Positions 428 through 63,595 of a DNA stretch of 64,000 bases are shown here, in pieces. Every line of letters starts with the position of its first letter. Position 1 is the stretch's first letter. The DNA comes from a virus. Both the position numbers and the translations under genes were made by a program. A model generated the notes under the pieces. The model was not told the DNA's origin and searched no databases. It saw nothing but the letters and a program-made list of their open reading frames with translations. The stretch is taken from positions 1 through 64,000 of the IMG/VR virus record IMGVR_UViG_3300034071_001414; one strand, written 5' to 3'.

Positions 428-3400
428 ATGACTGAACTCCTTAAAACTCCAGTAAAATATGTGGTAGATATTCAAAATAAAAAGATTTCTCTTCATCAAG
501 AAGAGGACTTTGAAGTATTATCTTTCAATACCGTTGATGAGTTTATGTATGCTCTAACAGATATTCGCAAAACAAACAACATTATCTGGTATGTAATTCC
601 ACCAGGATTGATTGACCCCCCTATTAAGGTGAACTGAAATGACTAAACACGAGATTGTTGAAACAATTGGATTTTATATTTTTGTGGGATTGATGGGTTG
701 GGCACTTGTGTCTTTATTTCCTCTTACTTGGGGGCAGGCACTCATAATCTCTTGGATGTTTAACAAACTTATTGATGTATTAGAATGACTTCTATTCTCC
801 AACAATACACTCTTGAAGATTTTGTAAAATGTCGTAATCAAAAAGAGTGGGTTTGTGATAATTGTATGAAATGTGGTGATAGAGATTGTTGCTCTGGAAA
901 TCACATTATGTTTAGAGTTCCTAAAACTGATGATTGTCCTTGTTCTATTTGTATGAGTGGATTGAAATGAAACCCTTTTTGGGATAAAAAATGACTTACG
1001 AAGTTCAAACTTGGGATGACGCAGATAAAACTGTGTATTATGAAACCGTAAAGGATGCTATTGATTATGAGAGTGCTCGTGATATAATTGTAGAGAAGTA
1101 TCCAAATCGTAAAGTAATTGCTGTGATTAGAAAATGACTGAAAAAATAGGATATAAACTCAATCCAAAGAAACTCAAAGGAGCCCCTCAAGGTATTCTTC
1201 CTTATGTTGTTGGTGCTTTTTATTACACCGAAGATTTTGAGTATTTTGATGTAATCAAACCATACTTGGATATTCCAGAGAAACCCAAAACTCTGGATGA
1301 AATCACACAAGAATTTGATGAGAAGATTGATAAACTGATTGAGACAACAAAAGAAAAGTTTGAGTGCTCCAAATATTTTGCTGGAAAAAGGTACAATCAA
1401 AAGTTTGATAAGATTATTGAGAACTTTGAGTATGCTCGTAAAAATGAATGTTTTCCACAAAAACTTACTCTTGATTACTCCAAGTTTTGTGCGACTGGTA
1501 GTTCTGTGGAAACCTCTTTTGTAATCAAACAAGGAAATAACCACGAAGGTTATTATACGATTGGAAATGGTTATTTAAGGTTCTATATGCCGACTAAACC
1601 AAATGCTATTACTCGTTGGTTTATGAATAAATGTCTTTCTATTAGATGGGTGGATGAGAAAAATGACTAAACTATCAGCAGCAGACCTTATGGTAATTCA
1701 TAACACTCTTTATAAAAGTTTGAGTGTCGTTGGAAATAGTATTTGGACACAAGAAACCAGAGAAAGAGTTATGGATAAGGTGTCTATTATTATGGAACAA
1801 ATGAACGCAGAAGTTGTCTGTGGTGATGTAGAACCTATTGTAGTGAGTGGAGATTTGGGAGGATGACCCACCCATCTTATTGTTGTCCTAAATGTGGAGA
1901 TATGATAGGATGGACTGGAAGGTTCTTTCAGTTTCTTCGTATTCCATTACATCGGTGTAAGGACACTTGACGAACTGGCACAGGGGACGCTCTGGGTGCC
2001 TCTGTGGGTGGTATGATACTCTCATACACAAAGGAACTCCAAATGTTTGATGCCTTTACTGATTATCCCATTCCATCTTATGGTGATGTTGCGGGAGAAA
2101 AAGCACCTATTCGTAGAGCAAAAATCCTGACTTATGATGGAAATAAGTATTGTGATGTGCTTGTCTATCAAGTAGATGAAGATGGAGATTTGAGGGGAAC
2201 TGTTGTTAATTTTAAGCAGTTTTATCTTTATAAAAATGAAGCACGACTTGATGATGGCATTCCATTCACCTATGCAGAACTGGAAACTCTTCCTTTGACT
2301 GAAATAAGTTCTCCTCATTCCATTTGATATAATACTCTCATACACACAGATACCTGATGACTGAACAAGAACTTATTGAACTCTGGGGTGATGGAACCCA
2401 GTTTGGAATGAATACTCTTGGTGCTGGTGTTATGACTGGTGCTATGAATAATGCCTTTCGTGAGGTTGCTGTAAAGTTTGCTCTTGTAGTTGCTGATAAA
2501 GCATATGGTATTGGTTATGATATTGGGGCAGGTGATGAGTATGATAGGGGATATGTTGATGGTGTGGAAAGTGTAAGGTCTGGTGTTCTTGGAGATTGAA
2601 ATGACTGAACTTGAACTTGGGCAAATGTTATGTGGAAATGCCACAGAGGAATATAGTGTTCCTCGTGAGAAGTGGATGGGTGGTCCATTCCAAATCCTGA
2701 TTGATGCGATCACAGAAAATACAGGAGAAAAAGATTATGGATACACTCCACATTTCTCCAACGACTTCTTTATCATCCGTCCTTATTATTGGGGTGATGA
2801 AGAAGATGAAATGGATAAACCTAACTTTCAAATCCCAAGTGAAAACTTCCGTTTGACTTGGTATAAGTATCCTTTTAGGAGTTCTTATGCGAGTGAGAAA
2901 CTTACTCCAAAGAGGTGGAATGACCTGATTCAAAAATGTATTAAAAGTTTGGAAGAATGACTAACAAACTAAAATTCACACAAGTATCCAGAGTCATCTG
3001 CCCCAAGACTGGTGTTCATTATCTTGATGCGATTGATGAAAATGGAATACACTGGGTTGCTCAACAAGAAATTGGTGTGGAACGGTGGATTACTTATAAG
3101 GAAACTTGGAAAAGAGACCCTCAACAACCTTTGGACTTATGACTCATCCTACGAAAGATTGGGACTTTGATGATACAATTGAAGAAGCATTTCAGGAATG
3201 GTTTAATGACCTTAATGGTGGTTTTGCATTTTGTAGTGAATATTTTTTCGGTGATTGTGAAGTTGAGGATGTGAATACTCGTAAGGATTTGATGTATAAG
3301 TGGTTGCACTCTGCGTTTGTTGTGGGGTATAATATGGGAAGAATGGAAGGACTTGAAGTAGGACTGACGAACAATGACTGAAATTGAACTGGTAAAACAA

Positions 3401-3874
3401 GAAATCAAAATGCTCCAATCCAAACTCTCATTTTTGGAAGAACTGGAAAAGACAAAAACACCAGTAGAAGAAGCATACAAAGATTGGTGGGGACAATATC
3501 CTGAATTGGAAACTGATTCCAAGTATGATGATATGAGATGGAGGGGTTTCCAAGCAGGTTTTCAGGCAGCATACGAAGAGAAGGTAAGAGAAGATGATTA
3601 TTATAATGAAGTAAAGTGTGATGAGAAAGATAATCCAAAACCTTTGGATGATGTGGTGAATAGGTTGGTGAAAAAATATCAAGCACAAAAGCTTTTTAAT
3701 AGATTGGTAGATGAACTTGTTTTTGATTTTGATACCTGTAATGATATTGTAGATTTGGTGGAGGACTGGATTTTGGATGAACAAAATTCTGACGGTTCAC
3801 AGAATGTGAACACTGAACTTCTTGTGGAGGGATTTAATGATGCAATACGCAAAATGAAGGAGATGTTGAGGTAA
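428..3874 (+). CDS. Cluster of ~11 short hypothetical early phage genes (e.g. 428-637, 785-970, 1134-1670, 1663-1866, 2043-2327, 2357-2599, 2601-2960, 2957-3142, 3139-3381, 3374-3874)
   Basis: Tightly packed co-oriented ORFs, many with overlapping stop/start (ATGA); no recognisable functional motifs. Confidence 0.7.
1961..2030 (+). promoter_or_regulatory. Early promoter, family B (GGACACTT-N4-AACTGGCAC box, hairpin, TG-extended TATGAT, leader ACTCTCATACACA)
   Basis: GGACACTTGACGAACTGGCAC at 1961; -10 TATGAT 2012-2017; same leader after TATAAT at 2328 and 4733. Confidence 0.65.
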
Positions 3875-3981
3875 TAAATAATAGTGTCTGTTTGGACGGC
3901 AATCTCTACAGACAAAAGATTAGGTGCTCTTATGGGCACCTTTTCTACTATAAATAATAATGCCGTCCAAATAGAATAGAA
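3873..3981 (+). ncRNA. Putative antisense sRNA cassette 1 (late promoter, stem-loop, terminator, late promoter)
   Basis: AATAAATA 3873-3880; stem TGTCTGT/ACAGACA; TTTGGACGGCA 3891-3901 complementary to TGCCGTCCAAA 3961-3971; terminator AGGTGCTC-ttat-GGGCACCT-TTT; TATAAATA 3949-3956. Confidence 0.6.
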
Positions 3982-4680
3982 ATGAATTATCTAAAGGTTT
4001 ATTGTAACCTCATAAGGAAAGCGGAGAATAGAACTCTTCCTGAAGGTTACACGGAAAAACACCATACCTTTCCAGTAAGTATATTTGGAAAAAATAAAAG
4101 AATTGTAGTTCTTTCTGGTAGAGAACACTATATTGCTCACGCATTATTAGAAAAGATTTGTATAAAAAGGTATGGATTACATCATTATAAAACACACAAA
4201 ATGATAAAAGCATTTTGGTGTATGAATAATCAAATGAAAGAAAGTAGATATGTTAATTCTCATTTATATGAAAGTTCTAAAAAAATATATACTGAAACTA
4301 TAAAAGGTGAAAATCATCATTTTTATGGTAAAAAACATTCATTAGAAACTAAAAGAAAGATTAGTAGACGAGGAGAAAAAAGTCCAAATTATGGTAGAAA
4401 GGCATCAATAGAAACAAGGCAAAAATTAAGTGAAATGCGTAAAGGAAGACCTGGAACATTTGGATTTAGAGGAAAACAACATACAGAAGAACATAAACAA
4501 AAAATGAGAGAACAAAGAGAAGTTAAATCTTTTTGTGTGATTAGTCCTACTGGGGAAATTATTTTTGATAAAAATATGAAGGAATTTTGTAGAAAAAATA
4601 ATTTAGATAGAGGGCATTTTTCTTGTGTTTTAAGTGGAAAAAGAAAATCGCATAAAGGATTTCGTCTTTATCCTGGTTAA
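3982..4680 (+). CDS. HNH homing endonuclease (MobE-like N-terminus, NUMOD3-type repeats)
   Basis: YTEKHH...LSGREHYIAH motif; HHFYGKKHSLETKRKIS and GKQHTEEHKQKM repeats; C-terminal SGKRKSHKGF; AT-rich, late promoter upstream. Confidence 0.85.
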   Translation: MNYLKVYCNLIRKAENRTLPEGYTEKHHTFPVSIFGKNKRIVVLSGREHYIAHALLEKICIKRYGLHHYKTHKMIKAFWCMNNQMKESRYVNSHLYESSKKIYTETIKGENHHFYGKKHSLETKRKISRRGEKSPNYGRKASIETRQKLSEMRKGRPGTFGFRGKQHTEEHKQKMREQREVKSFCVISPTGEIIFDKNMKEFCRKNNLDRGHFSCVLSGKRKSHKGFRLYPG

Positions 4681-4751
4681 GGACACTTAAAGAACTGGTA
4701 CAGAGGCACTTGAAACAGAGTGCCTTTTGTTGTATAATACTCTCATACACA
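4681..4751 (+). promoter_or_regulatory. Early promoter, family B, with -35 inside a hairpin
   Basis: GGACACTTAAAGAACTGGTAC, then AGGCACT/AGTGCCT stem containing TTGAAA, 17-nt spacer, TATAAT. Confidence 0.75.
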
Positions 4752-4764
4752 AAGACACCTCTTG

Positions 4765-7700
4765 ATGACTGAAGACCAAATCAAAATGCTTCGTTTCTTA
4801 ATTCAACAAGAAATTGAAATTGCTCAAATTGATGGTATGGAACACGGTGTTTGGGGTTGGGCAGAAAAACAAGCAGATGAAAATTGGAAGAAGTTTCGGG
4901 AGAGTTTTAATGACTGAAGAAGATAAGTATGCTCTCAAAGAGTTTCTCCGTGCTGTTGGTGTTACTGCTGGTGTCTTTGTTGTCTTTGGTATAATCTTTC
5001 TTGTGATTATTAATCTTTCCACAGGTGGTGATAAACCACTGAATTCTTCATCATTTGAAGTGGTTGATAAGTACAAAGAATGCGATGTAGTAAGATATGC
5101 ACCGCACCAAGTTGCCGAGTACAAGTATTTCCTGTATTGTGAGAAGAACAAATGAACGATGATATGCCTTGGGTTAATCTCACACAAGAGGAAGTAGAAG
5201 AACTCCGCAAACAAAAATACGAACTGACTGAATACGCCAAAGAGAAACTGAGGAAACTTATGAACAAACCTATTGAAGCAAAAGTATCTGAAGAAGATTA
5301 CCAGAAAGTTCTGGATCTCATGAACAATCAAGAACCTTATCCAGATGCAATGTTTGAGGAAGCAGAGCGTCGTGAAAAGAGTAATCGTGTTCTTCAACGA
5401 TATAATGACTTTCACAATCTTGAAACTTCTGGACTTCCTCACGGCACACCAATCACACCAGAGCATCAACAGATTATTGCAATGGAAAGTATGATTGATG
5501 CTATTCGTTGTGAATATCTCAATCGGGAGTATAATCATATTGCGATTGAGATATTGAGGATTTGATTGAACGACTTCGTGAGCAAGCAGATGAGTATCTT
5601 GAAAGAGTGAGGAAGAATAATGAGCGATAAACCATTCTATCGTTTCTTTGCGATTGATTATTGTGCAACTGGTGAAGGTCGTTCATTCTGGTTGAAGATC
5701 TGTCGCAACTATCAAAGAGTTGATGATAGAGACCGTGAATATGAAAAGTTCGTAAAGTTTGTTGATTGTGATCATTATATGCACGGATTTGATGAACTGA
5801 CGGAGAGAGAGTTTCTGGACAAATATACAAGGTTCATTCCCTATTTTGTCGCAGAAATGATGCAAAGGAAAGACCAACCAGCATTCACTTGGGAAACTCA
5901 TTTACACTTCAATTACTCATGAACCTCACATACAGACAACTGATTTTCTTGACAACGGCACTCACAGTGTTTTATGATGAGGTCGCAAAGACTTCTACTC
6001 CTGAAATGAAACAGGAACTCATGGAACTTGGTGAGATTATTCAATCTGCTGCGATGAAAGCAAAATGAAACTCTGTAAAGATTGTAAGTATTATCGTAAG
6101 GATTGGGGATCTCATATTTTCCATAGAACTGATTATTGGGATGTTTGTGTTCGTCCCGACCAGGAAAATCCTGTGAGTGGAGGAACAAAAGCACATCGTT
6201 GTGGATATGAAAGAATGTATGATATGTGTTGTGGTCCTGATGGTAAGTTCTGGGAGGCAAAATGAAAGCATTTAAAATATGTTTTGAGTTGTGGAAACAA
6301 CTGATGACTTATGATGGTCGTGACCCTGAATGGGACTTTGAAGATTATCAAGGTATTTTTTGGGATTATCTAAACTACTCTTACATTAGAACAGAGTGGA
6401 GTATCAAGAGTGAATGGAAGTGGAAAAAATGACTAAACTAATAAGGTGGGAAGAAAACCCTGATGAAATTGTGCTGGAAGAAGTGAAGTTGTTTCACCTG
6501 GAGAGTATGAATGAACGAGCACTGTGGATTGGTGTTTATGGCAAGGATGGTAAGATCTACCACTTGAATATTTCTGCAGATGGTGATAGACTGAGGTACT
6601 ATTGGAGCGATGAAACAGTATGACCTGGAAAGAATACTGGCAGATGACAAAATGGGAATGGTTTATTGAGGGTTTCCGCAATATTGAGTATATCATTGAT
6701 TGTCGTGTTACTATGAATCATTTTGGATATGATGACTTCTGGGAGGCACTTTCTTGGGGTTGGTGTTGCGAATACATCTATCCTTATGATGATCCATACA
6801 ATCCATACATATCAAAAGAACGCAAACTACGATTGGGAAGATGGTCTTAATAAACAAATTGATAATCTCCAATAGATTTCTCCGTTATCGTCCCATATGG
6901 TGGTGGTATAGGTTGATTTCTCACGAAGGATTTAGATTTGATGATTACCATATTTGGGGAGAGTTTTGGAGTTCTCTGAATGGTGGATGGTTGGATATGA
7001 ACTATCAGTGGGAGTTTGAAAAGTTCTGGGGTAAGGGAGCAAAACCTGAGCGTATTGTACTTCCTGCAAAGGACTTTGATGCTCTTGTAGAACGATTGAA
7101 TCAACCACCAGACCCTAAAGTAGTGGAAAGATTGAAAGAGATTATGTCCAAAAAAGCACCTTGGGATGATGACAGAGAAATCTAAAATCTTTTATAACAT
7201 CTGGTGTTGTGCATATCAGCGCCGATATTTGTATAGGGGGACACCAAGAGAACAGAGAGAGCATAGCACAATTCGTATGTGCCTAGATATGAAAGACGTT
7301 AAGTTCTACCAGTTTGATAAGGAGAAACCGCGATATGTTTAGCAAGCCACTTCTGGGAACAAATGCAAAGAAAACCAAACTGTCTTGGTTTGAATACATT
7401 TGGCACTCCTGTATCATTCAGGGGTGGTATAATTGTTGGTATGCTTTCAAGAATTGGGGAGACTTGATGGGAGACAACTATCAAGAGTATGCTCTTCTTG
7501 TATCTGATGATCCATTGGAACAGTGTATTCTTTACTTCTGGGATAGTTTGGAAGATGAGATTTATCCCAAACATTTCTTAGAAAGTTTACTTCAAATGGT
7601 TGATGATATTGAAACTGGTAAAGAAAAAGTAGTCCCACTTGATAAGGATTTCTTTGATAGAATGAAAGAACTTGTTAGGGATATTGAAGTAGATCTTGAC

Positions 7701-11408: not shown

Positions 11409-11503
11409 TTGACAATTTTATTTTTTTAGTTTATACTAAATATGCTCTGATAAAGCAAACCATTACACGCTTTATCACTCCAAACCATTATTCGGAGCAA
11501 ATT
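11409..11503 (+). promoter_or_regulatory. Sigma70 promoter overlapping a late-type box, followed by a twin-hairpin 5' leader
   Basis: TTGACA 11409-11414, 17 nt, TATACT 11432-11437; CTAAATA 11436-11442; two hairpins with AAACCATTA loops. Confidence 0.7.
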
Positions 11504-20040: not shown

Positions 20041-20296
20041 CTTCAATTCTACTGCAGAGGTGTCATAGGTCATCCGCTGCAATCAAATCACCGATTTTTT
20101 AGAAAGTGTAACTATGAAACAAGGATTCACGATGTTCAAAGACACATATGCTGCAATTCCTTACGGGAATCAGTATCTCATCATCTATAATGGTCAGCAA
20201 CTTGATAAACTTTGTAGGACTGAGAGTTCTGCCCGCAAATATATCACAGACCACAGAAAAAATTGTTCTAATGCAAAATTACCTATTGAGTAATTA

Positions 20297-20405
20297 AATA
20301 AATAATAGTGCCTGAAGTTGACTGACATCTCTACAGGTGAGAGGGGAGCAGAGATGCTCCTTTTCTTGTATAAATACTTAAGTCAGTCAACTTAAGAGCA
20401 GAACT
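20297..20405 (+). ncRNA. Putative antisense sRNA cassette 2
   Basis: AATAAATA 20297-20304; AAGTTGACTGAC 20315-20326 complementary to GTCAGTCAACTT 20382-20393; terminator GGAGCA-gaga-TGCTCC-TTTT; TATAAATA 20369-20376. Confidence 0.6.
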
Positions 20406-21080
20406 ATGGTAAATCCATACAGATTTTATACTTATGCTTATTTGCGTGAGGATAGAACTCCTTATTATATTGGGAAGGGAACTAATAAAAGATTATATGT
20501 TAGGGGAAAAACAGATATAAAACCACCAAAAGATAAGTATAGAATAATCTATCTCAAACAAAATCTAACTGAAGAAGAAGCATTTAAACACGAAACTTAT
20601 ATGATTGCGGTATTCGGTAGAAAAGATTTAGGAACTGGTATTCTTCATAACAGAACTAATGGTGGTGATGGATCTTCGGGAGTGGTAGTAAGTGAGGAAA
20701 CTAAATTGAAAATGAGCAAAACAAGAAAAGGAAAATCTTTTAGTGGGGAGCATAAAAGGAAAATAAGTGAGGCAAAGAAACAACAAACAGAAGAAACGAG
20801 AAAGAAGATAAGTCAGGCAAATAGGGGCAAAAAACGTAGTGAAGAACAAAGGAAGTTAATGAGTGAAAGAGTAAAGGGGAGAAAACACTCTGAAGAAACT
20901 AAAAAGAAAATGAGTGAAAAAAGAAAGGGAAGAGTTTTTTCTGAAGAACATAAACAAAAAATAAGAGAAGCACTTTCTGGTATAAAACGTTCAGAAGAAA
21001 CTAAGAAAAAGATTAGTGAAGCATCAAAGGGAAGAACTCCTTGGAATAAAGGTGTATCAATGGGCAAACTTCCTTTGTGA
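20406..21080 (+). CDS. GIY-YIG-type homing endonuclease with NUMOD3 repeats
   Basis: FYTYAYLREDRTPYYIGKG; LHNRTNGGDG; repeated (K/H)SEETKKK(M/I)SE. Confidence 0.85.
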   Translation: MVNPYRFYTYAYLREDRTPYYIGKGTNKRLYVRGKTDIKPPKDKYRIIYLKQNLTEEEAFKHETYMIAVFGRKDLGTGILHNRTNGGDGSSGVVVSEETKLKMSKTRKGKSFSGEHKRKISEAKKQQTEETRKKISQANRGKKRSEEQRKLMSERVKGRKHSEETKKKMSEKRKGRVFSEEHKQKIREALSGIKRSEETKKKISEASKGRTPWNKGVSMGKLPL

Positions 21081-21373
21081 TACTAACTTGGATCGTCCAA
21101 AGTGTCCTTGTAGTATAACCACTCATCTCTGAATGACTTTTTACTGGAAGTTCTTTGATACTCTTGTCTATAATGTTGCTACTATCTGTGCATTTGTTGT
21201 TGCAGTGAGTCAGTTCCTGATTCGCTCTTTCAATGAGAACGATGGAAGCAATAAAGTTCGCAAGTTTATCAACCAAACTCTTCTGTTTGTGAATCGTTCT
21301 ACCTCTACAGTGTATAACTTCGTTAATGAAGATACTCTGCCTGAAGTAAAGAAACCCAAGCGTAGTGCCGCTT

Positions 21374-21424
21374 GATAAACTAGCACAGGAGCACTTGCAA
21401 TTTAGCGTGTGCTCCTTTATTGTA
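21374..21424 (+). promoter_or_regulatory. Early promoter, family B
   Basis: AACTAGCAC box; AGGAGCAC/GTGCTCCT stem with TTGCAA, 17 nt, TATTGT. Confidence 0.55.
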
Positions 21425-21652
21425 CCTTTGTTCTTGAAACTCCAATGATTTTTCTCACTGTTCCTGGTCACGGTTGCGTTTATACTCTCTCGCAAGAAGA
21501 TGGAGATGAGTTGTACTATGCACCCATTATGCAAGATGGTAGTGTAAATCTAGAGGAGTTTGCACCTGTAGATCTTGACGCTGCAGATATGGACGAAATG
21601 GAACTGTTTGACATTCGCAATCGTCTTCAAAAACTGGTTGAGGTTTGATTAT

Positions 21653-21751
21653 AATAAATAATGATGCTTATGTTTGGTCGCACAAGCACATTGGAGGGGC
21701 AGAAATGTCCCTCTTTTGATATAAATAATCAAGACCAAACATAAAGCAGTT
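21653..21751 (+). ncRNA. Putative antisense sRNA cassette 3
   Basis: AATAAATA 21653-21660; stem TGCTT/AAGCA; TTATGTTTGGTC 21668-21679 complementary to GACCAAACATAA 21733-21744; terminator GAGGGGCA-gaaa-TGTCCCTC-TTTT; TATAAATA 21720-21727. Confidence 0.6.
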
Positions 21752-22378
21752 ATGAATAAAATTATCCTTTTACGGGATGAAATAATTTCCGTATACAAAC
21801 AAACTTACTCTGTTATTCAAGTTTTAGAGCATTTTGGTTATTCTCGAAAGAGTGTAGAAGGAAGAAAACAAATAACTGACATTCTAAAAGAAGAAGGTAT
21901 ATTTGAGGGATTGACTGGTCCTAATGTCATAAAAATGAAGCATCAAAGGGCAAAGAAAACTATGCTCGAAAAATATGGTGTAGACAACTACTCTCACACT
22001 GAATGTGGATCTAAAAATCTACATAATCACAGACAAAAAAGTTATTTTCCTGTAATAGAAGAGTTTAGAAAATATCAGAGTGAAGTTAATAAAGAAACAA
22101 AAAAGGCAATGAGAAAGATAAAAGATAAACCAACTCATTGTGAATACCTTGGTATCAAGTTTGTAGATGATAAAATAGCAAATCCTAACGACCAATTAAA
22201 AAGGACAATAGACCATAAGAAGTCGGTTTATAATTGTTGGTTAGAGGGAATATCTGCAAAAGAAGCATCTTCGCCAGATAATCTTGCTTGGGTTTGTAGA
22301 TACATCAACAGTATAAAAGGAAATGCTGATTATGATGACATTAAACACATTTTTCCCAAAATAAAAGACAAATTGTGA
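21752..22378 (+). CDS. Putative HNH-like free-standing endonuclease
   Basis: KTMLEKYGVDN segment; C-terminal RTIDHKKS...DNLAWVCRYINSIKG (H-N-N); AT-rich. Confidence 0.6.
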   Translation: MNKIILLRDEIISVYKQTYSVIQVLEHFGYSRKSVEGRKQITDILKEEGIFEGLTGPNVIKMKHQRAKKTMLEKYGVDNYSHTECGSKNLHNHRQKSYFPVIEEFRKYQSEVNKETKKAMRKIKDKPTHCEYLGIKFVDDKIANPNDQLKRTIDHKKSVYNCWLEGISAKEASSPDNLAWVCRYINSIKGNADYDDIKHIFPKIKDKL

Positions 22379-22441
22379 CACTTTAACAACTGACCACCCC
22401 TTCTTAACTTTAACTTGGATCCTCTAAAGTGTCCTTATAGT

Positions 22442-42100: not shown

Positions 42101-45100
42101 AAAGAGATAATAGTTTTAATGTGCAAAGAGTAGGAGTAGTTGGAACTCCTGGTGCTATTTTGACTTTAAAAATTAATGAATTTATACCAAATACTTTGTA
42201 TTACGATTTAATTCCATTAGATTCTAATGGTCTTTTCTTACCTGAAGTGCAGAAAGAAATTATAAAAGATAATATTGTAAATTCTTATAATCAACTTAGG
42301 ATAAAAAATAGCATTTATAATGGCACTTATAAAATAAGAGTTTCCAATCCAAACTCTTTCGAATATTTTCTTCCAACAATTCCAGAAGTCCAATCATATA
42401 CATCTGAAATTTCTACCACATCTACCTTATCATCATATTTGAAATATACTACAAAATCTTTAACTGCATCTGGTGCAATTTCTAACATAAGAGTAACAAA
42501 TAAAGGTACTAATTATTATTCTTTACCAGGAATAACTTCGGTAAGTTCTTTAAATGGTAGGGGGTGTATATTAAATGCAGAAAGTAATACAATAGGAAAA
42601 ATTAAAAAAATAAAAATAGTAGATGGTGGTTTTGATTTTACGTCAGATAAAACTTTAAGACCATATGCAGAATTTCCAAAAAATATAAAAATTGATAATT
42701 TATATTCCATTGATAACATTGGAATATCTTCTCAAGGAAGAGGATATACAACCACACCAAAACTTGTAGTTTTGGATGGGAAAACTAAAAAAGCAATACC
42801 ATCCGATTTGAGTTATAAACTTGGAGATAGTAAAGTAACAATCAAAACCAATGCCAAAGGTTTAACTGACTCTATTCCAACGATAATTCCCACACAAAAT
42901 TCAAATGGTATAGGAATAACAGATATAACATATAATCCAACTACTAAAGAAGTAAAAGTTTATCTACCATTTTCTTTCAGTGATATTGGAAACTTTGACG
43001 CTAATACATACCCAATTAGAGTCAATGATAGAGTTTTAATTGAAAATATCAGCGTGGGTGTAAATTCTACATATAAAGGATTTAATTCTTCAAACTACGG
43101 GTATTCTTTATTCGCAATAACAAATGTAGACTTGAACATAGGTGGTGTTAGTGCTGTAACTTATAGTTTAGATGGATACCTCTTAGATTCCGAATTGCCA
43201 GGTACATATGACCCAGTTAATTCTTCAGGAAGAGTAGTTCCAGAAAGAAATTTCCCCACGTTTGAAACAACAATTAAACAGGATGGATATAAAAAGGGAG
43301 AAACTGTAATATCTAATGGCTCTTTTGGAGTTGTCGAAAATTGGGATGCTATTACCAAATATTTAAAAATATCATCAAAAAGTGACTTTGAAATTGGTAA
43401 CATTGTAGAGGGATTATCTTCAAAAACAGTAGGAACTGCATCATCAATAATTGATTTAAATTCTTATGCAAAAACTGATTTTTCGATCAAAGTACTAGGT
43501 GGGTGGGAGTCTAATGCCGGATTTTTAAATGACAATGCACAAAGAATTCAAGATAGTTTATACTATCAAAATTTTTCATATTCATTGAAATCAAGAGTTG
43601 ACTATGATACTTGGAATGATGCTGTCAGTGCTTTAAATCACACTGTTGGATTTAAAAAATACTCAGATTTCCAAATGGAGTCCAAATTAGACAATGACTT
43701 CAGTAATTTGTTTGTAGGTCTTTCTACAGATACAACTGCCACTAATGTTAAAGTAGAAATGACCAGTTATGGTGATTTAAATTGCGTTTCTGATTTTGAT
43801 TTGGGAAAAGAAAATTATTTGAATTTGAATTCAAGAATTGTAAGTAATAAAATATATTTTGATAATATACCTCTTACCGATTATTATGAGGCAAGAGGAA
43901 ATAGAGTTTTACTAATAGATGATATTAGCTCTAATTTTAATAGTGGAGAAAGACCAGAAAAATATTCAGATGTTTACAAGTTTAATATTAACACAAATAG
44001 ATCTCTAAAGTTTCTTTCATATATCAGAGATAAAAAATTTACTGGACAAAGACAGGTAATGTTGACATCTATGATTCATAATGATTCATATGGTGTCGTA
44101 AACCAATATGGAAGAATTGAAACTGCATATGATTTGGGTTCTTTTGATTTTGTAGTCGATCAACCATTTGGAATTATTCGTTTTTATCCAACAAGATATA
44201 CTATTAATAATTATGACGTTGCTTTATTATCATATAATTTAGACGATGCTTTTACTGGAGTCGGAACAACAACAATTGGTTCAATTGCTAAAGTAGATAC
44301 AAAAAATATATCTTCATCCGCTTCTACAATAAATGTTGTTAGTTTGGCAACTACATACACCTCAGCTAAAATTTTAGTACAGATATACAGAGATAGTTTA
44401 AATTATCAATTTAATGAATTAAATGTAGTTCATAATGGAACAAATATTGATTTTATTGAATATGGTGAATTGTCAACAAAAACAAGGACTGTAGAGTCAT
44501 CTGGATATGGAACATATTATCCATATATTTCTGGTGGAAATCTAAAAATAGATTTTATACCAAATGTTTCTGTTGGAAATACTTTTTATATAAACACTGC
44601 CAATGTCGCTCTTGGTGATACAAATTCATCCGGAATTGGAACTATTGAATTAGAATATGGTGAAATAAGAGCAAATAGCGTTTCTATACCTAGTTCGCCA
44701 ACACCATCTGCATCAGCAATTTTAAGTTTTACGGGAGAGCATGATTGTGCATATTGTTTAGTTCAAGTTTCCGATATTACAAATAATCGTTGTGCTTTTT
44801 CAGAGGTTATTTTGATAGTTGACGATGTAACTTCAGAACCTCTAATAACAGAATATGGTAATGTTAATACTTTTGCTGGTCTGGGTACAATTGGTGCATC
44901 AGTAACTGGAATTGGATCGACAACTCAACTAGTATTTACTCCATTACCAAATATTCAAGTCCAGGTAAAAGTATATGCCAATTTACTTGGACTTGAAGGT
45001 AATGATATAAAATCATACCAATTAAGTAACCTAAATATTAATTCTCAGTACGGATCTTACAGTGGTACTGAAGTTGACCAAGTAAGAACATTCAATTTAA

Positions 45101-61867: not shown

Positions 61868-63595
61868 ATGCCAAGATTGAAGTCACATAAAACAGTTGAG
61901 CAGATTGCTAAGAAGCATCGTCTTGATGTGTCTTTTATACAAAAGCAGCTTGATATTGGAGAACCTATTGAACATGAACATACAAAGGATCATGAACTTG
62001 CAATGGATATTGCTCTTCAACATTTAGATGAAATTCCAGATTATTACACTCGTTTGAAGAAGATGGAATCAGATGCTAAAAAACATCATAAAAAATTTAA
62101 GGATGTAACGGAAGAAACTAAATCCGGAGATGAAGGTTTACATGATTGGTTTGGCAAATCAAAATCATCCGATGGTAAAAGTGGATGGGTCCAACTAGGA
62201 GGAAAATGGGCAGGTAAACCATGTGCTCGTCAACCTGGTCAAACTTCAACTCCAAAATGTGGAAGTTCTAAAATGAAGAGAGCACTTTCTAAAGACGAAG
62301 AAGAAGCAGCGAGACGTAGAAAAAATATTCAAGATCCTAATCAACCACAAAAAACTGGTGGATCAAAACCAACTAACGTAAGAACTGAAGAAATGGATTT
62401 ACAAGAAGTCAAAGACAAACCAGGAAAAGGTAGTGGTAAAAAAGATGCCTGCTACCACAAAGTGAAATCTCGTTATGACGTTTGGCCAAGTGCATATGCA
62501 TCTGGCGCACTTGTTAAATGTCGTAAAGTTGGTGCTGACAATTGGGGTACTAAATCTGAGGCAACTATGCATGAAGAAGAAAGATATTGTCCCCTATGTG
62601 ATAAAAGAGAAACTAGATCTCAGTGTTCTTATGGAGAAAAAGCGTGGGATAAAGTTTCTGTTAAAGATCAAGAGTATTCTATGGCAAGATCTGAACTAAA
62701 AAATATTATTGATGCAGCCAAAAGACTTGAAAAAAAGGTAGGAAAGGGAGAAGGATCATTAGAAGCGTGGGTGCAGTCAAAAATTACAAAAGCTGCCGAT
62801 TATATTGATACTGCAGCAGATTATGTTGCAAGCGGAGAAATGCAAGAACAAAAATTGGTAGATAAAATAATTGGAGAAATGAAGTGTTGGCCAGGATATG
62901 AAAAAAGGGGGACTCAAAAACTTTTTGGTAAAAAGTATAATAGATGCATAAAGGCAGAAGATGTAACCATTGAGGATGCTGATGGCAATACTTTTGCTGA
63001 AGTTGTTGATTTGATTAAACCAGAACCAATAAAAGGATTTAAGTCTCAAGTTCAAGAAGCAATAAGACTCCAAGCACAAACTGGAAATGTCATTGCAGTA
63101 ACTCTTTCCTGGAGAGGAAAGTATTATTCTCTTAAAATGTTCTTTCCTCAAATTAAAACACCAACAAAAAAAGAAATAAATGATGAACTCCAAAAAGTTT
63201 ATCCAGGTTCAATGGTTTTATATCATTCAATCTCAGAAATTCAACCAGGACAGCCTCTTATTCAGATGATTGGACCACAAGGTGGTTCAATGGCATCTCC
63301 CGGTCCATCTAAAAGATATATTAAGCCAATGGGAGAAGAAACTGAAACTGAAATTGATGAAGATTGGCAAAAAGTAAATCGCCAAGATAAAACTGATGGA
63401 TTAAGTCCAGCAGCAGTAAAGGCATATCGCAGAGAGAATCCAGGTTCAAAACTCAAATCCGCTGTTACCACACCACCTTCAGAATTAAAACCAGGTTCGG
63501 CAGATTGGAAAAGAAGAAAAAATTTCTGTAGTCGTTCTAGAAGTTGGACTGGAGAAAGAGGTAAAGCAGCACGTAAACGTTGGAATTGTAATTAA
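61868..63595 (+). CDS. Mosaic multi-module late protein between gp16 and gp17
   Basis: AATAAATA upstream; modules EHEHT..ALQHLDEIPDYYTRL, KDACYHKVKSRYDVWPSAYASG, WVQSKIT, KCWPGY, RRKNFCSR..ARKRWNC. Confidence 0.7.
   Translation: MPRLKSHKTVEQIAKKHRLDVSFIQKQLDIGEPIEHEHTKDHELAMDIALQHLDEIPDYYTRLKKMESDAKKHHKKFKDVTEETKSGDEGLHDWFGKSKSSDGKSGWVQLGGKWAGKPCARQPGQTSTPKCGSSKMKRALSKDEEEAARRRKNIQDPNQPQKTGGSKPTNVRTEEMDLQEVKDKPGKGSGKKDACYHKVKSRYDVWPSAYASGALVKCRKVGADNWGTKSEATMHEEERYCPLCDKRETRSQCSYGEKAWDKVSVKDQEYSMARSELKNIIDAAKRLEKKVGKGEGSLEAWVQSKITKAADYIDTAADYVASGEMQEQKLVDKIIGEMKCWPGYEKRGTQKLFGKKYNRCIKAEDVTIEDADGNTFAEVVDLIKPEPIKGFKSQVQEAIRLQAQTGNVIAVTLSWRGKYYSLKMFFPQIKTPTKKEINDELQKVYPGSMVLYHSISEIQPGQPLIQMIGPQGGSMASPGPSKRYIKPMGEETETEIDEDWQKVNRQDKTDGLSPAAVKAYRRENPGSKLKSAVTTPPSELKPGSADWKRRKNFCSRSRSWTGERGKAARKRWNCN

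Follow-up and report, generated by a model that had tools for sequence, protein, structure and literature searches.

A portable control module ahead of homing endonuclease genes in lake cyanophages and its candidate antisense RNA

A portable control module of about 110 bases precedes a homing endonuclease gene in a T4-like lake cyanophage, a cyanomyovirus recovered from lake-water metagenomes (IMG/VR record IMGVR_UViG_3300034071_001414). The window analyzed here is the first 64 kb of this 98.5-kb contig. Homing endonucleases need enough expression to spread, at a level low enough to spare the phage, and T4 uses cis-acting RNA masks for this purpose. Comparative sequence analysis demonstrates that an upstream segment of the module, the 5' arm together with the 5' strand of the hairpin P1, is complementary to the entire nuclease mRNA leader, that this pairing is selected at the RNA level on the plus strand, and that it is specific to each module. 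Masking of the leader by such pairing is very probably what the module does. Whether the predicted discrete antisense RNA of about 60 nucleotides (nt) also exists and acts in trans is, on the sequence record, evenly balanced.

The first copy in the window (copy 1, 3873-3981, plus strand; table 1) comprises a late-promoter-like box (box 1), a hairpin (P1), an intrinsic-terminator-like hairpin with a T-rich tail (P2), a second late box (box 2) and a complementary leader, all of which are present as the initial annotation had described them. The P1 loop is 16 nt long and holds most of the 5' arm; the terminator scan of P2 gave eight pairs (five G-C) closing a loop of 4, with a T tail. As claimed, the exact complement of the loop segment starts at the fifth nucleotide past box 2. 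The predicted box-2 start is the second base of the 3' arm. The pairing had been put at 14 nt with one G-U and the distance from the arm to the ATG at 11 nt. We confirm a lone G-T exception in an arm pair of 15 nt (93% complementary) and an ATG at 3982, 10 nt beyond the arm. An inverted repeat of at least 9 nt surrounds only three of the 33 plus-strand ATAAATA boxes of the 98.5-kb contig and none of the four on the minus strand, and all three stand before nuclease genes; the layout of copy 1 is therefore more than chance.

The annotation also stated that the layout recurs near 20297 and 21653, which is correct: copies 2 and 3 share it with copy 1, with unrelated arm sequences. The gene behind copy 1 matches PHROG 655 (homing endonuclease, E 2e-32) and Pfam NUMOD3 (E 1e-18), and a PDB sequence search with its product gave no match.

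Table 1. Coordinates of the control modules, their parts and adjoining features in the window.
Feature	Position	Strand	Remarks
Upstream gene, 166 amino acids (aa)	3374-3874		TAA stop 3872-3874
Whole mobile homing-endonuclease element	3872-4764	+	893 base pairs (bp); inserted at gene junction
Box 1, late-promoter-like	3873-3880	+	AATAAATA; first bases shared with the TAA stop of the upstream gene
P1 hairpin	3885-3914	+	stem TGTCTGT 3885-3891 / ACAGACA 3908-3914; 7-bp perfect inverted repeat
Candidate late RNA of about 60 nt (P1 + terminator)	3886-3946	+	predicted start G3886; 61 nt
5' arm, antisense segment	3887-3901	+	15 nt; P1 loop and part of its 5' stem
5' arm core	3891-3901	+	TTTGGACGGCA; exact complement is TGCCGTCCAAA, 3961-3971
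P2, intrinsic-terminator-like hairpin and T-rich tail	3922-3948	+	hairpin 3922-3941
Box 2, canonical late promoter for the nuclease mRNA	3949-3956	+	TATAAATA; predicted +1 is G3962
3' arm	3961-3975	+	first ~14 nt of the late nuclease mRNA leader; ends 6 nt before ATG
Homing endonuclease gene, 232 aa	3982-4680	+	HHxxP...H HNH-type N-terminus, two NUMOD3 motifs, I-HmuI NUMOD-like C-terminus
Terminator-like hairpin at element 3' end	4702-4727	+	consensus scan only
Sigma-70-like promoter	4710-4738	+	TTGAAA-17-TATAAT; 11/12 positions; consensus scan only; overlaps hairpin
Copy 2 module	20298-20405	+	15 nt pairing, 93%; precedes GIY-YIG-like/NUMOD3 nuclease 20406-21080
Copy 3 module	21654-21751	+	12 nt pairing, 100%; precedes endonuclease-VII/HNH-like gene 21752-22378

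Related modules are numerous. Searching viral contigs with nothing but box 1, a gap and box 2 as the pattern brought up 41 real modules, with arm pairs all different yet matching. When the pattern consisted of the T-run and box 2 alone, leaving box 1 free, about 54 real modules were found and box 1 occupied the same place in all of them (41 ATAAATA, 13 CTAAATA). The pooled set defined by inverted repeats holds 81 modules from 68 loci, and each of their 49 distinct arms matches its own leader. A third search, with box 1, the anchored stem and the terminator as query, returned 96 modules, every one with an intrinsic terminator, a box 2 no more than 25 nt away and a complementary leader; the 11 that do not share an exact 8-mer match all pair through G-U, as read from the printed sequences. 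Altogether 81-96 modules were recovered, from uncultured cyanophage contigs and from the phages S-SRM01 (freshwater) and S-B68 (marine). In S-SRM01 the module stands ahead of the gene at 62515; in S-B68 its position is about 44329-44426, with the DNA polymerase gene on one side and uvsX on the other. Among cultured phages, BLAST of the 110-nt module gave matches only to S-SRM01, B3, and B23, and Rfam had no match to positions 3700-4100 at E values up to 1.

Open reading frames (ORFs) downstream of the modules begin with GIY-YIG-like or HNH motifs in 73/81 cases, the remainder being decayed or unknown small ORFs. At two loci (L074:4270-4335 and L199:6744-6758, both minus strand) the module is intact and the nuclease ORF behind it is cut to 22 and 5 codons, respectively, so that the control head can outlive its nuclease gene.

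Several measures point to selection on the pairing itself. Cognate arms and leaders form duplexes of -22.5 +/- 1.8 kcal/mol, compared with -10.1 +/- 4.3 kcal/mol for non-cognate combinations; the complementarity of loop and leader described in the initial annotation is real, selected and specific. RNAalifold, applied to 80 aligned modules, joins the 5' strand of P1 to the leader just upstream of the ATG, and covariation at columns 16-117 comprises C-G in 43 modules and U-A in 37, with zero broken. The full helix extends between the bases that directly follow the box-1 and the box-2 spacers. Variable loop lengths shift the arms and the 3' strand of P1 out of register in the MAFFT alignment, so pairs were assessed sequence by sequence and not by alignment column. 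At helix positions flanking the exact seeds, G-U-type pairs outnumber A-C-type pairs by 66 to 17, an excess that indicates selection on plus-strand RNA and not on DNA or the opposite strand. Complementarity to the target is thus kept by compensatory change across the 49 arm variants, and the co-variation of loop and leader that had been suggested for testing holds among the relatives. The first description of the element as a scaffold with a variable loop was accurate.

The read-through RNA of these modules folds as a translational mask would. Its minimum free energy structure contains the long-range helix in 73/81 modules, with an energy gain of about 13 kcal/mol, and in 63/81 this helix overlaps the ATG or stops no more than 3 nt short of it (usually 0-3 nt in the relatives). 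The read-through RNA of copy 1 folds at -41.4 kcal/mol (z -7.7), with a 15-bp helix that stops 6 nt short of the ATG; its late leader alone, from the box-2 start, is unstructured (-5.1 kcal/mol, z 0.09). The cis fold, which the initial annotation had put aside, is thermodynamically dominant on read-through RNA. Moreover, the late promoter lies between the arms in all aligned modules, so that late transcripts do not carry the 5' strand. This arrangement follows the logic established for T4 gene e, I-TevI/II/III and segB and for Aeh1 mobE, which are masked with a nested late promoter (PMC3014915, PMC2988022). Genes upstream of the module are small and tightly packed, with ATGA overlaps. We propose that the module, as the 110-base control head of a mobile element, would keep nuclease output low by RNA-RNA pairing. 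Transcripts arriving from upstream early genes would mostly end at the nested terminator, and those that read through would fold the arm onto the leader and become untranslatable. Transcripts from box 2 would start at the 3' arm, free of the 5' arm, and could be translated late.

The element that such masking leaves aside is box 1. Its hexamer TAAATA is invariant in 80/80 aligned modules, matching box 2 (ATAAATA in 80/80), and is preceded by A in 65/81 modules and by C in 16/81. It is always followed by a spacer of 5 nt, variable in sequence, and then by a purine that is the first base of P1. Box 1 fits NATAAATA, the late-promoter consensus of cyanomyoviruses (PMC2984593), and with its CTAAATA form makes a candidate promoter. 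ATAAATA usually stands 15-30 nt ahead of ORFs in the contig. The CTAAATA form also occurs in promoter-like positions before ORFs (contig positions 11436, 76564, and 91161) and as box 2 of the S-B68 module, at L219; the late-promoter consensus of these phages seems, judging from such occurrences, to allow C at position 2. In 38/81 modules the upstream gene has its stop codon inside box 1, and in the other 43/81 elsewhere; since only these 38 use box 1 as a stop, that role cannot explain the invariant hexamer.

Of the 73 distinct modules, 67 have a P1 stem of at least 5 bp anchored at the predicted +1, compared with 41% of shuffles, and many compensatory stem types are seen; the local stem is, on these comparisons, itself under selection. 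Because one strand is common to P1 and the long helix, the two cannot form together. The candidate RNA of copy 1 is predicted to form two hairpins (-26.7 kcal/mol, z -5.8), and the predicted RNAs of the relatives, 48-65 nt long, have a like two-hairpin fold with the arm exposed in a loop. Exposure of an arm in a loop to nucleate pairing is the design of many antisense RNAs. P2, a G+C-rich hairpin with a T-run, gives the candidate RNA an intrinsic terminator. The antisense arm thus has, as first noted, a promoter-like box, stem and terminator of its own. Because the 5' part of the module carries both a promoter-like box and a terminator, an antisense RNA of about 60 bases may well also be released.

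The reading that we prefer, and which is new, adds a second step to the mask. Box 1 would act as a gp55-type late promoter firing 6 nt downstream, at G3886, and the resulting transcript would end at the terminator as an RNA of about 60 nt comprising P1 and P2, with the arm presented in the P1 loop. Contact of the arm with the free 5' end of the late mRNA for the nuclease could then nucleate a duplex that would spread via the P1 stem toward the start codon, blocking 30S binding and possibly inviting RNase III, so that late expression would be capped at a low dose. By extension, the modules may encode a family of late small RNAs of about 50-65 nt, each with a fixed two-hairpin scaffold and an exchangeable loop targeting the 5' end of the neighboring nuclease mRNA, a proposal to which we give equal weight for and against.

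Quite possibly, however, the arm works only in cis, within read-through transcripts, as in T4 I-TevI, segB, and gene e and Aeh1 mobE, although we would not call this probable. The terminator would then be an extra limit on read-through, P1 would keep the arm accessible or aid termination, and box 1 would be inactive as a promoter, kept as a portable stop codon, an A/U-rich element or something else. Such a mask by itself accounts for all elements but box 1: the fold of the read-through RNA is dominated by a helix that extends to the start codon, and the position of the late promoter, nested between the two arms, is precisely that of the T4 paradigm (PMC2988022, PMC3014915). In 2009, hairpins containing TATAAATA in cyanophage-like nuclease leaders were interpreted in this way, as far as the text of that study describes them (PMC2677866). 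What it leaves unexplained is the invariance of TAAATA, including in the 43/81 modules whose stop codon lies elsewhere, and the fixed 5-nt spacing to a purine at the base of the helix; box 1 also matches the late consensus of the phage itself, and its heptamer shows a strand bias of 33:4 in the contig.

Other observations weigh against a separate RNA in the same way. The short-RNA module is never found apart from its target: it adjoins it in 96/96 cases, and no orphan module with a distant target was found in 2.2 Mb of loci. Box 1 serves as the stop codon of the upstream gene in about half of the modules, and the lone pattern match in phage Syn9 is an ordinary gene end where a stop-overlapping ATAAATA is followed by a terminator and complementary arms are absent. 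The module of the type described here (type 1) is absent from Syn9, S-PM2, P-SSM2, and P-HM2, all of which have published transcript maps. A simpler type-2 module, found at L123, at L142 and in Synechococcus phage Sf-CH5, puts its arm in a hairpin loop yet does without box 1, so a loop-presented arm does not by itself imply a separate RNA. Pairing often takes in the T just 5' of each predicted start, a base that a trans duplex could not use unless transcripts start 1 nt earlier. Finally, none of the approximately 20 unordered module pairs within single contigs cross-react at -15 kcal/mol or below, compared with 12% of all non-cognate pairs, but these pairs are few and non-independent (p ~0.07) and the comparison does not separate cis from trans.

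Transcriptional interference is an improbable account of box 1. Polymerases started there would stop at a terminator 3-8 nt before box 2 and occlude initiation at box 2, with the short RNA as a by-product; the T-run does abut box 2 in all modules, and the tandem boxes lie on the same strand about 75 bp apart. Interference of this kind could do without P1, and without a helix whose first base is exactly where the short RNA is predicted to start, and an RNA that is abundant and matches a co-expressed mRNA at -22 kcal/mol is expected to pair with it regardless.

That the variable segment works at the protein or DNA level, as an operator for nuclease autorepression, an RNA guide or a recombination inverted repeat, is very improbable: the arms do adjoin both late boxes and I-TevI binds at an operator that overlaps the late promoter of its own gene (PMC2988022), but identical arms stand before different nuclease families, the nucleases carry NUMOD3 DNA-binding modules of their own, and the asymmetry between G-U and A-C pairs, with wobble rescue in 11/11 modules, indicates plus-strand RNA pairing and not the symmetry of duplex DNA. 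The initial annotation had suggested that the loop might guide the nuclease, an idea that fails since identical loops precede unrelated nucleases. The copy 1 arm TGCCGTCCA precedes an HNH gene here and a GIY-YIG-like gene in L110. As guide or operator, TGCGAACCA was likewise rejected, as it precedes three nuclease classes (GIY-YIG-like classes and HNH). The only conserved match of the arm is the leader of its own module (96/96), which is not the pattern of an RNA-guided nuclease.

Comparison with homologous loci places the module at the 5' end of a mobile element, of which box 1 is the extreme 5' end. In 20 homologues of the upstream gene the terminal sequence is ...CGATGA, where the ATG of the next gene overlaps the stop (ATGACTGAA), and it is a junction of this type that the element splits in the window. 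The insert consists, in order, of a stop codon with box 1, the module, the nuclease gene, a terminator-like hairpin and a sigma-70-like promoter. The predicted promoter faces, and could drive, the displaced downstream gene (ATG 4765), no longer coupled by ATGA to the gene before it, and the 3' end (4702-4764) looks like built-in polarity repair. The surrounding region (2357-5565) is a run of small genes starting MTE... and joined by overlapping ATGA; homologous contigs show different next genes at this junction motif, which for that reason looks like a recombination or insertion hotspot.

Lake contigs that do not have 21649-22410 (copy 3) or 20256-21047 (copy 2) show that the module travels with its gene as part of the inserted unit. 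Many metagenome contigs also part from the window sequence precisely at the ATG, with loose ends at 3985, and at 3917, ahead of the terminator, which shows module and ORF being shuffled independently of each other. In one lake metagenome, contig depth summed over the terminator and box-2 scaffold (3917-3985) reaches about 680-750, compared with 200 or less in the flanks; this scaffold is common to many community genomes, recombined with different arms and ORFs.

At copy 2, position 20255 is followed in lake contigs by AG and then by 21048. Read in frame, the 59-aa upstream ORF closes with KKGVSMGKLPL in this nuclease-free allele and with RKNCSNAKLPIE in the window, each directly before the stop, so the copy 2 element supplies its target gene with a recoded replacement for the final ~12 codons. 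The original end of that gene persists as the terminal 11 codons of the GIY-YIG-like ORF, to which it is fused in frame. Between copies 2 and 3, lake contigs join 21123 to 21431 with GATT between and thus are without an 80-aa ORF (21133-21375) and its terminator; 21124-21430 is a presence/absence cassette between two copies of a TTGGAT...TAGTAT linker repeat.

The module is abundant in lake cyanophages and bears every sequence mark of a small-RNA gene fused to a classical mask. A review from 2010 recorded no characterized trans-acting regulatory RNA in T4; if the preferred reading is true, the small RNAs would be the first of that kind in T4-like phages, and the module would be a modular, reprogrammable antisense repressor carried by selfish elements and capping their own nuclease dose. 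Should the RNA be real, nature would have provided a set of about 50 matched arm/leader pairs on one scaffold, and the mobile element would carry its own stop codon, repressor, late promoter, and terminator together with a replacement early promoter for the downstream host gene.

Type I toxin-antitoxin pairs such as IstR-1/tisB and Orz/zor have an adjacent, separately transcribed antisense RNA. The module resembles these in having a short RNA, here a candidate, beside its target, with ~18-21 nt of complementarity to the 5' untranslated region of a harmful-protein mRNA, whose translation it represses or, in the present case, would repress. The likeness to a type I antitoxin drawn in the initial annotation is one of function and no more: the gene encodes a 232-aa NUMOD3 homing endonuclease, the site-specific nuclease of a selfish element, in place of a small, usually membrane-active peptide with an mRNA longer-lived than the antitoxin RNA, the candidate RNA lies in tandem on the same strand, and no addiction or differential-stability logic is evident.

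Cyanophage S-PM2 has an experimentally observed noncoding RNA associated with a homing endonuclease, CfrI (Millard et al. 2010, as summarized in PMC2984593). As described there, CfrI is about 225 nt long, runs on the opposite strand across the nuclease gene and psbA, and has neither twin late boxes nor a loop/leader design; its host phage is among those that do not carry the present module.

Dassa et al. (2009; NAR 37:2560, PMC2677866) reported hairpins in the 5' untranslated regions of free-standing endonucleases at fractured gene loci, 10 of them containing TATAAATA, and interpreted them as masks of the ribosome-binding site. As in our modules, these hairpins belong to cyanophage-like loci and lie upstream of GIY-YIG/Vsr-like nuclease genes. 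The text describes two mutually complementary conserved motifs, which fits the type-2 module (L123, ~3100-3230, minus strand; L142, ~1980-2110, plus strand; L222, which is Sf-CH5, before 156271). That module consists of a conserved hairpin (GGGCAGCA.../...TGCGTAAGTCCCA) with the arm in its loop, a short T-run, a late box and a 3' arm abutting the ATG, and has no first late box. From the text alone, the type-2 module probably corresponds to the hairpins of Dassa et al.; as far as they are described there, a first late box, a nested terminator, variable arms, and a separate RNA are not mentioned.

The closest relatives remain the masks of the T4 family (T4 gene e, soc, 49, I-TevI/II/III, and segB; Aeh1 mobE), in which an upstream strand likewise pairs with the translation initiation region, a TATAAATA late promoter between the strands lets late transcripts escape, and the purpose is restraint of a homing endonuclease (PMC3014915, PMC2988022). 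In contrast to these, the 5' strand here lies in the loop and 5' stem of its own covarying, arm-presenting hairpin, an intrinsic terminator is nested between the strands, and a second, invariant late box stands 5 nt ahead of the purine at which that hairpin begins; these three features are new relative to the T4 mask. The masked region is an A/C-rich leader instead of a Shine-Dalgarno site, and the whole is a shuffled, portable cassette with about 50 arm variants. Even should the separate RNA not exist, no version of the T4 mask described to date is as elaborate or as widespread as this module.

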